Assembly: GCA_964504715.1 (NCBI GenBank)
Contig: CAZDEP010000008.1
Span: 1-61,469 of the forward strand
Direction of reading: 5' to 3'
Origin: an uncultured Candidatus Saccharibacteria bacterium
GTDB taxonomy: Bacteria > Patescibacteriota > Doudnabacteria > UBA920
DNA length: 61,469 nucleotides
Shown here piece after piece: positions 13,715-19,600 of the stretch. Under the pieces are notes generated by a model. The model searched no databases. It worked only from the letters and a program-made list of their open reading frames with translations, and had not been told where the DNA came from. Within the stretch, counting starts at the first letter, position 1, and each line of letters opens with the position of its first letter. A program made the translations under genes and the position numbers.

Positions 13715-16342
13715 TTATTTGGCAAAGGCTTTCGCCTGTTCCAGCTTAACCGACAATAATTTCGACACCCCATCATCCCCCATTGTCACGCCGTACAAAA
13801 TGTTGGCATGCGCCATGGTTTCGCGGTTATGACTAATGGTAACAAATTGGGTCGAATCCGCAAGCGAAGAAAGGATCTGCGCAAAACGGATGGTATTGGC
13901 GTCATCCAAAGCGGCATCCACTTCGTCCAAAACCACAAACGGCGAAGGGAAGCAGGTTAAAAGGCTACAAAGAAGCGCAATGGAAGTTAAGGATCGCTCG
14001 CCGCCGGAAAGCGCCTGCAGGGAATTTAATTTTTTCCCTACCGGCGTTGCTTTTATGTCTACGCCAATTATATTGGTGCCGCCCTTTTCGTACTTTTGGA
14101 CAATTTTTTCTTCTGGTCGCAGGACATTTGATTCATCTTTAATAGAATCCTGCGATCCATCCTCCGTAGCTTCAACGGAGGAGGACGGCTCATCTGCCGC
14201 TTTCACCAAACTCAAATACGCCCGCCCGCCGTTAAAGAGGATGCGGAAATAATGTTCAAACTTTTCGTTAATTTTCAAAAATGCCTGGTTGAATTTAAGT
14301 TTGATTTGCTCATCCAATTCGTCCATAATGCTGCGCAAATCCTGCATGCTCTTTTTTAAATCCTCAATTTGCGCACCCAAAGACTGGTACCGGCTCTCGG
14401 TTTCCTGGTACTCTTTCATGGTTAATTCGTCCATGCCGCCAATGGTGTCAAGCTGGGCGCGGAGCTTGAGCATCTTATTTTCCAAATCCGGCGTCTGGGA
14501 TTCCACTTTTTTTTCCGCCACCAGCTTCAGATCTTCTTCCCCCAGCATGCGGGTAATTTCCTCTTTTAATACCTGCATTTGGGTGTCAATTTTCGCTTTT
14601 TCTATTTGCACCCCGGAAATTTTGTCTTTTAACCTGGAAAGCTCGTCCTGCTTTTTCCGCACGCCGCTTTCGATTTCATGCAATTCCTTTTGATGATCTT
14701 CCTGCTGGCGCTGCTCGGATTTAAACAGCTCTCCCAGCTTGGCAATTTCCGCAGACAGCCTGTCCGCTTCCTCTTTAATGCGGCTTTCTTCCGCTATGAG
14801 GCCTTTTACAAAATCGTCAAAATTCTGGGTCTCGGCGCTTTTTAAATCCAACTCCAGCTGCCTTTTATCCTGCGCCAGTTTCTGTTTTTCCTTTTCCAAA
14901 AACTCCAGGGTAATTTTGTGCTTGGACAAAGAAAGCTCCAAGTCCTGGATCTTTTGGTTCAACTCTTCCTTTTCCCTTAAAACTTTCCTAAGCTCGGCCT
15001 GCAAATTTGCCGCGGCCTCTGGGTCATGGAAAGATTTGCTGACAAATTCCTTAAACTGCGCGAAGCTTCCCCGGAAGGCCTCCAGCGAAAGCCTTACCTG
15101 GTCCCACGGCTGGTTGGTTTGGATTTTATTGTAAAATTCTTCCACCGAATGGTCCAAAACCTTTAGCTCGCGGTTAAAACCTGCCCAGTCCACGGTGTTG
15201 GGATTTTGTAAAAATTCATACAGCTTCTCCAGCCGTTTGTTTAAAACTTCCAGAGCGCCCGAAGCTGTGTGGAGTTCGTTTTTATGACTCTCCTGTTCTT
15301 GGCGTCCGGTGTCAATTTTACCTTCGACATCTTTAAGCTTCTGCACGAGCTCGTGCAGGGTTAATTGCAAAGTTTTGGCGTCGGTCGCGCCCACATGCTT
15401 TTGGCTCTGCATCCTGCCCCTTACCAAACTCAAATCTTCAAGCAGCTTATTTTTTTGTTCCTGCAAACGACCAAGCTCTTCCTGGATTTGGCGGAATTTG
15501 CCGAACATCCCGTTTTTTTCCGTCTCCTTGCTTTCGGCCAAAGTTGTTTCGTTTTTCAGTTCGGCTTCCAGCTTGGCCCTGTGTTCCTCCAAGATTTTAA
15601 GTTCGCCTAAATATTTATCCAAAACTTCCTTTAAGCTCCAATAGGTTTTGCCGAAATATTCGCGCTGGTAAATTTTTAATTCCTGCTCTATGGCGCCGCG
15701 TTCTTCCATCCTTTTGGCCTGCCTTCTGAGCGACCTTAAGCGCGGCGCGATTTCGGCAATTAAGTCTTCGGCGCGCATTAGGTTTTGCGCGGTGGCTTCC
15801 AGGCGCCTTAAAGTTTTTTCCCGCCGGATGTAATAAGTTTTAACGCCACTGGCTTCATCCAAAAGGTTTTTGACTTCCTGCGGCCCGGCTAAAATCATTT
15901 GGTCTATGGTGCCCTGGCCGATTACCGTATAGCGCGAAGTGCCTATGTTGCTTTTTAAAACCAACTCTATAATATCCAAAAGCCTAACCTGCTGTCCGTT
16001 AAGCAGATATTCGCTGCTACCTGTTCTATCCACCCTTCTGCCTATGGCGACTTCGGCGGTGTCTAAGGGGATGCGGCGGTCGGCATTGTCAAAAGTGGCC
16101 GCCACTTCGCAAAAGCCCATTTTGGCTTTTTTTTCGCTTCCGGCAAAAATTACGTCGTCCGCTTTTTTGCCGCGGATGAGTTTGGCCGACTGCTCGCCCA
16201 AAACCCACCGCAAAGCATCCGCGACATTACTCTTGCCGCTGCCGTTCGGACCCACAATGGCGGTTATGCCCGGCCCGAATTCCATTGTAGTTTTGCTGGC
16301 AAAACTCTTAAACCCGTGAATTTCTAATCTTTTTAAATACAT
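13715..16342 (-). CDS. smc: SMC-family chromosome segregation ATPase (short, 875 aa)
   Basis: Walker A GPNGSGKSN, signature LSGGERSL, Walker B VVLDEVDAALD and long coiled coils. Confidence 0.85.
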   Translation of the reverse strand: MYLKRLEIHGFKSFASKTTMEFGPGITAIVGPNGSGKSNVADALRWVLGEQSAKLIRGKKADDVIFAGSEKKAKMGFCEVAATFDNADRRIPLDTAEVAIGRRVDRTGSSEYLLNGQQVRLLDIIELVLKSNIGTSRYTVIGQGTIDQMILAGPQEVKNLLDEASGVKTYYIRREKTLRRLEATAQNLMRAEDLIAEIAPRLRSLRRQAKRMEERGAIEQELKIYQREYFGKTYWSLKEVLDKYLGELKILEEHRAKLEAELKNETTLAESKETEKNGMFGKFRQIQEELGRLQEQKNKLLEDLSLVRGRMQSQKHVGATDAKTLQLTLHELVQKLKDVEGKIDTGRQEQESHKNELHTASGALEVLNKRLEKLYEFLQNPNTVDWAGFNRELKVLDHSVEEFYNKIQTNQPWDQVRLSLEAFRGSFAQFKEFVSKSFHDPEAAANLQAELRKVLREKEELNQKIQDLELSLSKHKITLEFLEKEKQKLAQDKRQLELDLKSAETQNFDDFVKGLIAEESRIKEEADRLSAEIAKLGELFKSEQRQQEDHQKELHEIESGVRKKQDELSRLKDKISGVQIEKAKIDTQMQVLKEEITRMLGEEDLKLVAEKKVESQTPDLENKMLKLRAQLDTIGGMDELTMKEYQETESRYQSLGAQIEDLKKSMQDLRSIMDELDEQIKLKFNQAFLKINEKFEHYFRILFNGGRAYLSLVKAADEPSSSVEATEDGSQDSIKDESNVLRPEEKIVQKYEKGGTNIIGVDIKATPVGKKLNSLQALSGGERSLTSIALLCSLLTCFPSPFVVLDEVDAALDDANTIRFAQILSSLADSTQFVTISHNRETMAHANILYGVTMGDDGVSKLLSVKLEQAKAFAK

Positions 16343-16348
16343 TTACTC

Positions 16349-16377
16349 TTGATTTATTTTGATATTTATGGTATAAT
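16349..16377 (+). promoter_or_regulatory. near-consensus sigma70-type promoter
   Basis: TTGATT (16349-16354), a 17-nt spacer, then TATAAT (16372-16377). Confidence 0.6.
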
Positions 16378-16383
16378 TTGCTC

Positions 16384-16590
16384 TTGAAAGGGGGACCAAT
16401 GCGACGTACTCATCGCATCCGCCCCTTGGGCAAGTACGATCTTGCCCAAGGGGGTTTGCTTCTCCTACTAATCCTCTGGATAGTAGGAGAAGTCCAGGTC
16501 GCTTGGCTCAGGGCTATCCATCCCTGAGCCAGGCCCCTTCGGCGGCCGGTCACTTAGCAATCAGCTTTGTGATCGGCCGCTTTCATTTTG
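16384..16590 (+). ncRNA. candidate structured small RNA, or mRNA of a 42-codon ORF (16399-16527)
   Basis: Five consecutive perfect or near-perfect hairpins with 6, 13, 11, 10 and 12 bp stems. The last is followed by TTTCATTTT, like an intrinsic terminator. GC content is higher than in the neighbours. Confidence 0.5.
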
Positions 16591-16699
16591 TAAAAAAACA
16601 AAAGTTAAAAAATGATAATTAAGAAATATAAAATAAAAAGCAGGATCGGAGTGGCAGCTCTTAATTCTTACTACTTACTTCTTAATTCTTAATTCTTTT

Positions 16700-17470
16700 T
16701 TAAAAGAGATTCTTCTTAAGCGCGTCTTCCGCTGCCGAAACTTCGGCTTCCTGCTTGGAAGGGCCAACGCCCCTCCCGACTTCCTTCTCGGCCACGAAAG
16801 CCGCCAGAACAAAAGTCTTGTTGTGGTCCGGGCCGGTTTCGCTTATAACCCCATAGTGCGGGGTTATGCCTGACTTTTCCTGGACCATTTCCTGCAGCTT
16901 TGATTTGGGGTCCATATACTTCCCGTCTTCTATAATATTTTCCAACTCCACTAAAATTTCGCGGCCAATAAAATTGGTGCAGGCCTGGTAACCCAGATCC
17001 AAATACATTGCGCCAATTAACGCCTCTATGCAGTTGGCAAGTATAACCTGCCTGGCCCTGCCCGTGTCTTTGGCCTCGCCCCGGCTCATAAGCAAAAACT
17101 GTTCCAAACCCAGGCGGGAAGCAATGGAAGAAAGCATTTTATAATTTACCAAAGCGGAACGGAAGTTGGTCAGTTCGCCTTCCGGATGGCTGTAATTTTT
17201 GTACAAATATTCGGTCGCGCACAATTCCAAAACGGCATCGCCCAAAAATTCCAGGCGCTCGTTATGCGGCAAATGAAAACCCCGGTTCTCGTTTAAATAC
17301 GACCTGTGCGTAAAAGCCGAAAGGTACAAGTCGGGGTCTTTAATTTTGGTTTGAAGAATTTTTTCCAATTCTTCTAAATCTAGGGTAGGCACGTCGTAGA
17401 AAATTTCCAAATCCCAATTTCCCTGCCTCGCCGGCAGGCAGGCAATTTCCAAACAAATTCCAAATTCCAA
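16700..17470 (-). CDS. rnc: ribonuclease III
   Basis: FTHRSYLNE, ERLEFLGDAVLEL and a C-terminal dsRBD. The longest ORF starts at a TTG and its first ~26 codons cover a repeat hairpin, so a GTG start at 17392 is plausible. Confidence 0.9.
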   Translation of the reverse strand: MEFGICLEIACLPARQGNWDLEIFYDVPTLDLEELEKILQTKIKDPDLYLSAFTHRSYLNENRGFHLPHNERLEFLGDAVLELCATEYLYKNYSHPEGELTNFRSALVNYKMLSSIASRLGLEQFLLMSRGEAKDTGRARQVILANCIEALIGAMYLDLGYQACTNFIGREILVELENIIEDGKYMDPKSKLQEMVQEKSGITPHYGVISETGPDHNKTFVLAAFVAEKEVGRGVGPSKQEAEVSAAEDALKKNLF

Positions 17471-17590
17471 ATTTTAATCTTGGATATTGAAATTTATTTA
17501 TGATTTGATGCTTGTTATTTGGCGCTTAATATTTTTTGTCCGACTTCTCGCCATTATTCCGTCTGGCCAAAGGCCGCGAGCGAAGTCGAG

Positions 17591-17665
17591 TGGTGGGCAG
17601 TATAGGATTTGAACCTATGACCCTCTCTACGTCAAAGAGATGCTCTACCCCTGAGCTAACTGCCC
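17591..17665 (-). tRNA. tRNA-Val (anticodon GAC)
   Basis: Hand-folded cloverleaf: GGGCAGT/ACTGCCC acceptor, anticodon loop TTGACGT, T-loop TTCAAAT, encoded CCA. Confidence 0.9.
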
Positions 17666-17722
17666 GAAGCTTAATGATTATACTAAAATCCGCCGTTTTT
17701 GACAAACGGCGGATAATTAAGA

Positions 17723-19600
17723 CTATACAACGGCTGCTGGCTCGAGCCCGGGGCTGAATTCCGGCATTTTTTTCTTTTCGGCCGGAATAATTTCCTTAAC
17801 CATTTCCGCAAACTCTTCCTGCTCTATGGTTTCCTGGCTAATAAGTTTTTTTGCAATGTTGTCCAAATATTCCCGATATCGGTTTAAAGTGTCCGTTGCC
17901 CTTTTAAGCCCCTCGGCCATAATGCGGCTGACTTCACTGTCAATCTGGCGGGCGACTTCTTCGCTGTAATTTTTGGATTCATGGATTTCGCGGCCCAAAA
18001 ATATCATATCCTGATGTTCGCCCAAGGCCACGGGCCCCAGCGCCTCGCTCATGCCGTAAGACATTACCAAGCGCCTGGCCATATTGGTGGCAACTTTCAG
18101 GTCATTGGAAGCGCCCGTAGTCAGTTCATTGAAAACCAACTTTTCTGCGGCAAACCCGCCCAAAAGTGCGGCTATCTCGTCCAGAAAACCCGATTTGGTA
18201 TGCAGATGCTTGTCTTCCACAGGCAGTTTCATAGTATAGCCCGCCGCCCGGCCCCGGGAGATTATTGAAACCTTGTGCACGGGATCCGAGAAAGGCAGTG
18301 CGGAACCAACCAAAGCGTGTCCGCCCTCGTGGTAAGCGGTGATTTGCTTTTCCTTGGACGAAAGCACGTGGCTTTTCCTCTCCGGCCCCAGCATGACTTT
18401 TTCCACGGCTTCCTTCAAATCCATTTGGCTGATTTCTTTTTTATCCCTGCGCGCCGCCAGAATTGCAGCTTCGTTTAAAATATTCGCCAAGTCCGCTCCG
18501 CTAAAGCCCGGCGTGCGTTCAGCAATGATTTTCAAATTTGTGTCTTTGGCCAAAGGCTTGTTTTTTGCGTGGATGTTCAAAATTTCTTGGCGGTCCCTTA
18601 TGTCAGGCAAATCCAAAATTACCTGCCGGTCAAAACGCCCCGGCCTTAAAAGCGCGGGATCCAAGACATCCGGCCGGTTTGTGGCCGCCATAACAATTAC
18701 GTTGGTATCGGTTTCAAAACCGTCCATTTCCACCAGGATTTGGTTTAAAGTCTGCTCCCTTTCGTCGTGTCCGCCGCCTAAGCCCGCTCCGCGCTGCCTG
18801 CCCACCGCATCTATTTCGTCCACAAATACAATGCACGGCGCATTCTTTTTGGCTTTTTTAAACAAGTCGCGCACCCTCGAAGCGCCTACGCCCACAAACA
18901 TTTCCACGAATTCGCTCCCGCTAATGTGGAAAAAAGGCACGTTGGCTTCGCCTGCCACCGCGCGGGCCAAAAGGGTTTTGCCCACGCCCGGGCTGCCCAA
19001 AAGCAGTACGCCTTTCGGGATTTTCGCGCCAAGCTGCAAAAACTTTTGCGGATAGCGCAAAAAGTCCACCACTTCTTTCAATTCTTCCTTGGCTTCCTTT
19101 GCGCCGGCCACATCTGCAAACTTAACTTTATTTTTCCGCTCGTCCGACAGCCTGACCGAAGACTGGCCGAAACTCAATGCGCGGTTGTTGGCCCCCTGCA
19201 CGTTGCGCATTAGGAAATATATGAACAATGAAATTAAAACAAAGGGGATTAAAAACGGCAAAATATTGCCCAAAAGCACGGTCATTGCGCTTTGGGTTTT
19301 ATAGCCAATTTTAAGGTTCTTTAATTTTTCCGCATCCACGCCGGTATTTTTGAAAAAATCAGTCACTTCCGTGTTCCTACCCAAGTGCGCCAGCAGCTTG
19401 GTGTCGGAATCTTTTACCGCGGCAGTCAAAGAGTCGTCCTGCACCACCACTTCTTCCACCTTGCCTTGGTTAATCAGCTGGCTGATTTCCGAAAGCTGAA
19501 CTTCCTGGGTCTTAACGCTCTTGTTGAACAAGCCGAAAATAAAAGAAATAATTAAAAACCCGGCCAGAATGTATATAATGTTGCGAATAATTTTACCCAT
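17723..19600 (-). CDS. ftsH: ATP-dependent zinc metalloprotease FtsH
   Basis: N-terminal TM helices, AAA Walker [19 protein letters not shown], and zinc site HEGGHAL. Confidence 0.95.

Follow-up and report, generated by a model that had tools for sequence, protein, structure and literature searches.

A probable self-contained small gene in the rnc-smc spacer of a Patescibacteria lineage, predicted to encode a membrane peptide on a highly base-paired messenger

The DNA analyzed here, which we call the window, is a stretch of 61,469 nucleotides (assembly GCA_964504715.1, contig CAZDEP010000008.1) from an uncultured Candidatus Saccharibacteria bacterium (GTDB lineage Bacteria; Patescibacteriota; Doudnabacteria; UBA920). 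At positions 16349-16590 it carries a compact unit between the genes for SMC and RNase III (Table 1). Both of these genes are on the minus strand, and the plus-strand unit therefore sits in opposite orientation within the rnc-smc spacer. The original prediction, made from the sequence alone, had described the segment as a promoter-to-terminator unit that holds either a hairpin-dense RNA or a 42-codon micro-ORF, and its account of the architecture was largely borne out. A promoter scan recovered the proposed TTGATT-17-TATAAT promoter, which matches at 10 of 12 positions and has the TG of an extended -10 element. The ORF behind AAAGGGGG and its 42-residue peptide were found exactly as quoted, and the last hairpin, noted earlier as terminator-like, is a stem followed by TTTCATTTT, a U-tract that is absent from the opposite strand. 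The segment is also, as had been claimed, richer in GC than its surroundings (0.545 at 16400-16599 versus ~0.40 directly beside it and 0.45 in the genome).

Table 1. Positions of the predicted features of the unit and of its flanks, numbered as in the window.
Feature	Position	Strand	Description
SMC gene (smc)	13715-16342	-	flank of the unit
rnc-to-smc spacer on the operon strand	16343-16699	-	probable read-through from rnc; would be fully antisense to the small transcript
sigma-70-type promoter	16349-16377	+	-35 TTGATT 16349-16354, 17-nt spacer, extended -10 TGgTATAAT
-10 element	16372-16377	+	within extended -10 TGgTATAAT
closing helix P1	16386-16540	+	strands 16386-16391/16535-16540 (the latter immediately beyond the stop codon) and 16394-16397/16497-16500
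SD-like AAAGGGGG	16387-16394	+	4-5 nt upstream of the ATG; paired in helix P1
42-codon ORF	16399-16527	+	basic N-terminal head, one hydrophobic helix; 41 codons in L050
hairpin 1	16399-16418	+	6 bp; start codon in 5' arm; 4-5 pairs kept in the other alleles
hairpin 2	16422-16453	+	13 perfect bp, 6-nt loop
hairpin 3	16458-16493	+	12 perfect bp (16459-16492) and one G.U; encodes the core of the hydrophobic helix
hairpin 4	16501-16534	+	13 bp, one U.G (C-G in the other alleles); UGA stop in 3' arm
intrinsic terminator	16542-16589	+	12-bp GC-rich stem 16542-16553/16569-16580, one G.U, then TTTCATTTT 16581-16589
RNase III gene (rnc)	16700-17470	-	flank of the unit

Protein searches found only two further alleles of the unit. 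One, at locus L049, comes from a MAG and encodes a peptide (P0001) with 86% identity to that of the window; the other, at loci L050 and L051 in aquatic metagenomes, encodes a peptide of 41 residues (P0002) with 68% identity. A search started from P0002 returned P0002 alone and no more peptide relatives. Both alleles lie in the same smc(-)/unit(+)/rnc(-)/ftsH(-) context as in the window. A comparison of the window with L049 across 15850-18500 revealed a mosaic of identity: 77-97% over the 5' end of smc, the cassette and most of rnc, and 100% from ~17300 onward (the start of rnc, tRNA-Val and ftsH). This pattern suggests a recombination tract or a chimeric assembly.

The promoter is the same in L050/L051 and differs from that of L049 by one spacer base. 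Across the three alleles, the 49 nt that span promoter and leader between the smc start codon and the Shine-Dalgarno (SD) motif have a single variable base, and the window is identical to L050 throughout this segment. Since this segment is unchanged where the flanking genes show a synonymous divergence (pS) of 0.25-0.51, the promoter and leader appear to be under strong constraint. Promoters of the same type stand ahead of ordinary genes in relatives, and the BLAST matches in relatives to the promoter segment proved to be just such ordinary promoters of ordinary genes. Transcription probably starts near 16384-16387, and the predicted plus-strand transcript is ~205-207 nt long. The SD-like motif reads AAAGGGGG in the window and AAAGGAGG in L049 and L050/L051, and is thus the canonical AGGAGG in the two other alleles. 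The 3' end of the 16S rRNA of this genome carries CACCUCCUU, whose CCUCC can pair with both versions. In a rough count that took the first ATG of each ORF, GGAGG stood upstream of 14 of 786 long ORFs, so the use of SD motifs looks rare in this genome and the strong SD of the cassette atypical. Between the terminator and the rnc stop codon we also observed an AT-rich tract (16660-16699) with short TTCTTAA/TTACT-like repeats, which all three alleles retain; inserts in the rnc-smc spacers of relatives are flanked by short-word repeats of a similar kind.

We folded the plus-strand RNA of 16378-16595 and obtained a minimum free energy (MFE) of -125.2 kcal/mol, compared to -71.7 +/- 5.0 kcal/mol for 200 dinucleotide shuffles (z = -10.6), none of which was as stable. 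The L049 RNA gave a z of -8.2 against its shuffles. The predicted fold is a multi-branch junction closed by helix P1, with four hairpins of 6, 13, 12 and 13 bp, followed by the terminator stem. All five hairpins named by the original prediction are present, and its base-pair counts needed correction for two of them: hairpin 3 has 12 bp rather than 11, and hairpin 4 has 13 rather than 10. All nine pairs of P1 are kept in the three alleles, one of them through A-U/G.U alternation, and the SD has a predicted mean unpaired probability of only 0.21-0.28 in each allele. Within the ORF, about two thirds of the nucleotides fall in the four near-perfect hairpins of 6-13 bp, and ~72% are predicted to be paired overall. 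Perfect hairpins are common in this genome (~700 with stems of at least 9 bp), and clusters of at least three per 220 nt occur at only ~5 loci. Two other loci, C1:115374-115823 (L055) and C1:58290-58570 (L054), are also hairpin-dense, GC-rich and without a credible Rfam match; the former has a GC content of 0.59 and an MFE of -221 kcal/mol across 450 nt. The long perfect hairpins of the genome form sequence families at gene ends, often in tandem, and resemble REP-type terminator repeats. Members of such families lie, for example, at C1:129010, C6:18190, C1:18700 and C1:58280, with arms that start with GATGACGGTCTTCTTGC in one family and AAAGGCTCAACC in another.

The Rfam scan that had been proposed as a check (Rfam 15, including 6S, SRP, tmRNA and RNase P) gave no credible family match. 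Over the whole window only tRNAs and rRNA passed the gathering scores, and a search of 16250-16750 at E <= 10 returned noise on the element. The RNase P RNA of this genome was found on another contig (C6:18282-18690), so the element cannot be RNase P, and its absence from all relatives searched is unlike a universal RNA. We also rejected identities as SRP RNA, tmRNA or 6S RNA, as the hallmark motifs of these RNAs and of RNase P are absent from the element and no relative carries it. Several of these RNAs also escaped detection elsewhere in the genome, in which ARAGORN gave no tmRNA, RF00023 had no hit above the cut-off, and RF00013 gave no 6S RNA. In the same genome (92% complete), searches for SRP RNA (RF00169, RF01854), the Ffh M domain (PF02978) and the SRP54-type GTPase (PF00448) were all negative, as were NCBIfam searches for ffh and ftsY. 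Across the order, none of 21 genomes, among them the present one, had a match to RF00169, and none of 31 had one to PF02978; the same SRP searches were positive in 12-14 of 14 model genomes used as controls. The missing SRP components may reflect a lineage that lacks SRP or extreme sequence divergence.

We examined the ORF in the three alleles. Its ATG, UGA and frame are kept at 24% nucleotide divergence, and the sole indel within it is an in-frame deletion of 3 nt in L050; indels of 1, 2, 3 and 16 nt occur just outside, starting directly after the stop codon. Variable columns number 14, 5 and 15 at codon positions 1, 2 and 3, a depletion at position 2 (p = 0.013), and the amino-acid replacements are mostly conservative, chiefly hydrophobic for hydrophobic. 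The dN/dS ratio is 0.39-0.76 on 12-33 changes and not significantly below 1, compared to 0.03-0.08 for rnc, smc and ftsH. By codon usage the ORF frame scores best of the six, yet falls between typical in-frame and out-of-frame values. ORFs of ~40 codons arise easily in sequence of 58% GC, and one is present in three of the six frames of this stretch; the other spacer ORFs (47 codons on the minus strand and 39 on the plus strand) were set aside, as they are not retained in the other alleles.

The encoded peptide has a head with a net charge of +3 to +5 over its first 13 residues and a best 19-residue Kyte-Doolittle window of 1.7-2.1. AlphaFold2 predicts a single helix over residues 12-40 (pLDDT 94-97 in the core), along which Trp, Gly-Glu and Trp positions are conserved. 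No Pfam match to the peptide was found. A search against longer proteins gave no match, and we therefore rejected a reading of the ORF as an N-terminal fragment of a larger gene. A leader peptide or attenuator was rejected as well because the plus strand has no following gene: the terminator is succeeded by the convergent end of rnc. Together, the kept frame, the in-frame deletion, the depletion at position 2 and the conserved hydrophobic core make a purely non-coding RNA less likely.

The same three sequences (window, L049, L050/L051) were used for both the coding and the covariation tests and, as there are only three alleles, every statistic on the cassette is weak. In their alignment, 94.4% of pair cells hold standard pairs. 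Double compensatory changes affect three pairs, all of them in hairpins 2 and 3; among 500 shuffles, 14 matched the observed covariation. The basal pair of hairpin 2 is C-G in the window and G-C in L050, and hairpin 3 of L050 carries two compensatory double changes, C-G to G-C and U-A to C-G. The first of these replaces Leu by Val on one arm and Val by Leu on the opposite arm, an exchange across the stem in which protein and fold constraints share the same bases. In L049, the terminator stem has been rebuilt with different bases and loop indels and is still a perfect stem, a further compensatory change. One-sided changes of A-U or G-C to G.U, at four pairs, keep pairing on the plus strand only, and the reverse pattern occurs at no pair, which indicates that the plus strand is the folded one. 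Paired columns of the ORF are less variable than unpaired ones (18 of 84 versus 16 of 42, p = 0.057). Against these observations, the window and L049 form the mosaic described above, L049 has five stem mismatches without compensation, and templated mutation at the DNA level within palindromes could imitate compensatory changes. The three sequences thus indicate, with weak support, that the helices are kept by compensatory changes. Frame and helices were both retained in the two further alleles, the outcome of the conservation check on homologous spacers that had been suggested, and this supports the view that selection acts on both the peptide and the helices. The original prediction had left a micro-ORF and a pure RNA as equal possibilities; frame and compensatory changes favor the former, as a structured messenger, and make the purely non-coding version less likely.

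To define the distribution of the unit, we searched widely among relatives. It was found neither with a six-frame peptide HMM in a further 94 genomes of the family nor with a covariance model of the three alleles in 150 relatives, and a DNA search revealed no copy in 60 relatives and none elsewhere in its own genome. Three other congeneric species were searched, and they too lack it. Collections of phages, plasmids and viral contigs gave no match, exact and gapped patterns found none in metagenome and genome contigs, and neither did a peptide-based locus search in metagenomic, genomic and viral sequences. The synteny of rnc and smc is kept in 28 of 30 relatives examined. The spacer between them measures 0-1079 nt in relatives and holds unrelated cargo (small genes on either strand, terminator hairpins); in many relatives the two genes are 0-35 nt apart. 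The GC content of spacer cargo in relatives (L020-L048) is ~0.50 in some and just 0.27-0.34 in others. When we looked for equivalent elements in these spacers, the candidates were only terminator hairpins or unrelated inserted genes. By these comparisons, the unit appears to be a lineage-restricted cassette in an insertion hot spot. It has its own promoter and terminator, and its occurrence at a conserved site varies among close relatives, as expected of an autonomous accessory cassette; a search for carriage by a mobile element gave no match in the phage, plasmid and viral-contig collections.

Taken together, we give a probability of about 65% to the reading that the unit at 16349-16590 is a genuine self-contained small gene of Patescibacteria, which encodes a 42-residue membrane peptide on a highly base-paired messenger. 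At the same level, the best explanation is a lineage-restricted cassette of promoter, gene and terminator that encodes a single-pass membrane peptide, with a messenger that occludes its own ribosome-binding site. Such an autonomous cassette would lie in opposite orientation within the rnc-smc spacer of one narrow Patescibacteria lineage, and its ~205-nt transcript would have as its sole product a single-pass membrane peptide of 41-42 residues with a basic cytoplasmic head. The extreme 5' end, including the ribosome-binding site, would pair with the segment past the stop codon. By analogy with the design of type I toxin mRNAs, we infer a messenger that may be long-lived and poorly translated, its own fold limiting its output. 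In the two alleles searched, the minus strand of the spacer showed nothing that resembles a promoter or a terminator; given this and the abutting rnc and smc of many relatives, the operon transcript probably reads through the cassette in antisense. A sense/antisense duplex of ~200 bp would be a natural substrate for the RNase III encoded directly upstream.

A more specific version of this explanation, compatible with it, is a type I toxin-antitoxin-like module, in which the peptide would act as a toxin that damages membranes, its folded mRNA would be kept silent, and read-through from rnc into smc would serve as the antisense RNA, with the duplex cut by RNase III. We judge this version to be rather unlikely. 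Many small membrane peptides are harmless, which speaks against assuming toxicity here. In its favor, the peptide is small (41-42 residues, where type I toxins have fewer than 60), with a basic head and one transmembrane helix by both Kyte-Doolittle and AlphaFold2. The fold is predicted to hide the SD in all alleles by pairing the 5' end past the stop codon, as type I messengers hide their ribosome-binding sites through 5'-3' pairing. The unit is also convergent with an operon that shows no minus-strand promoter or terminator in the spacer, so that a full-length antisense RNA is expected; this probable rnc-to-smc read-through transcript is the sole candidate antisense RNA. There is precedent as well, since silencing of type I toxin mRNAs by RNase III is established in B. 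subtilis (PMC3531473). On the other side, a dedicated antitoxin promoter was not found in the spacer of two alleles, no type I toxin family in Rfam or Pfam matched by sequence or profile, and the unit has no association with a phage or plasmid. It is present in a single copy, and the search for an antisense partner that had been suggested turned up no trans-encoded complementarity of at least 13 nt elsewhere in the genome. The proposed resemblance to type I toxin transcripts thus stays an analogy: the small helical peptide and the occluded ribosome-binding site agree with it, and an antitoxin promoter and a toxin-family match were not found.

A bolder form of the same idea, which we regard as improbable, is a type I-like addiction module without an antitoxin gene of its own. 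Here the essential rnc-smc transcript would neutralize the messenger, and the RNase III that this transcript encodes would destroy the duplex.

The unit could also be a non-coding regulatory RNA, either cis-antisense to the rnc-smc operon or a trans-acting sRNA, with an ORF that is fortuitous; we judge this unlikely. The extreme fold, the absence of an Rfam match, the compensatory changes and the G.U pairs confined to the plus strand would all suit such an RNA, as would the ease with which chance ORFs arise in a GC-rich stretch. Furthermore, 42 nt comprising hairpin 3, its loop and the linker after it are invariant between the window and L049, beyond what coding alone would predict. These points are outweighed, in our view, by the coding signature described above (start, stop and frame kept at 24% divergence, the in-frame deletion, the depletion at position 2 and hydrophobic-for-hydrophobic replacements), by an SD that has become canonical in two alleles, and by a covariance model that recovered no homologue in 150 relatives.

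A third reading places the function on the minus strand, where the element would serve the intercistronic processing or the stability of the rnc-smc mRNA and where, for example, RNase III cuts would uncouple the two genes. The minus strand does fold strongly (z = -10.0), and the element follows directly after rnc in a conserved operon. However, the G.U pairs of the plus strand become C.A mismatches on the minus strand, with no pair behaving the other way round; the promoter, SD, ORF and U-tract terminator can be understood on the plus strand only; and most relatives lack the element and have spacers of 0-150 nt. We consider this reading very unlikely. A relic without function, left by a mobile or foreign element and palindrome-rich by chance, would fit a sequence that is GC-rich relative to its genome and confined to one lineage at an insertion hot spot, and is the least credible of all, since the unit persists with invariant promoter, intact frame and maintained stems where flanking-gene dS is 0.3-0.9, and no second copy exists in its genome, nor any in the collections of phages, plasmids, viruses, genomes and metagenomes.

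We compared the cassette, as a probable small membrane-peptide gene, with known systems. Like type I toxin mRNAs (hok/Sok, aapA1/IsoA1, tisB/IstR-1, txpA/RatA, bsrG/SR4), it encodes a peptide of at most 50 residues with one transmembrane helix; it is predicted to form a compact, highly paired messenger with a buried ribosome-binding site and a 5' end paired to the 3' region; and it is a stand-alone promoter-to-terminator unit for which an overlapping antisense RNase III substrate is plausible. Unlike them, it gave no match to a described family, no promoter for an antitoxin sRNA was found, its antisense candidate is the transcript of a housekeeping operon, and its host belongs to a Patescibacteria lineage. 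In a full-text literature search, type I toxins and Patescibacteria were not mentioned together in any paper.

Small membrane proteins from unannotated sORFs (the AcrZ, KdpF, MgrB and CydX class) share with the peptide their size, single transmembrane helix and positive-inside N-terminus, as well as lineage restriction and fast evolution. The unit differs from this class in having ~70% of its ORF within near-perfect helices; to our knowledge, the class is not known for coding messengers that are ~70% helical with compensatory changes, some of them non-synonymous. Dual-function RNAs (SgrS/SgrT, RNAIII/hld, SR1/SR1P) are likewise small structured transcripts with a short peptide, in which fold and frame are both selected. 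In contrast to these, the helices of the unit lie inside the ORF rather than in a separate base-pairing domain, and no trans target (at least 13 nt of antisense in its own genome) was found. The unit also resembles moron-like cassettes in being a promoter-gene-terminator unit between conserved genes, present or absent in close relatives and above its host in GC; unlike them it is not on a phage, and it is a single cassette in antisense within an operon spacer, beside the RNase III gene. On sequence grounds, therefore, the unit matches no described family, though it is similar to type I toxin genes and small membrane-protein genes.

The cassette is an instructive case in which selection on a protein and on an RNA fold would act on the same nucleotides, including Leu/Val swaps across a stem. 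It would also represent a type of gene that standard annotation overlooks: a GC-rich, SD-led, hairpin-packed small gene in an ultrasmall CPR bacterium. Its antisense position in the operon of RNase III and SMC suggests a connection with RNase III. If the addiction-module reading were true, silencing of the cassette would be tied to the expression of the host's RNase III and SMC, in a host that also appears to lack the SRP pathway for the insertion of membrane proteins. Should the peptide prove toxic, it would be a first candidate type I toxin in Patescibacteria.
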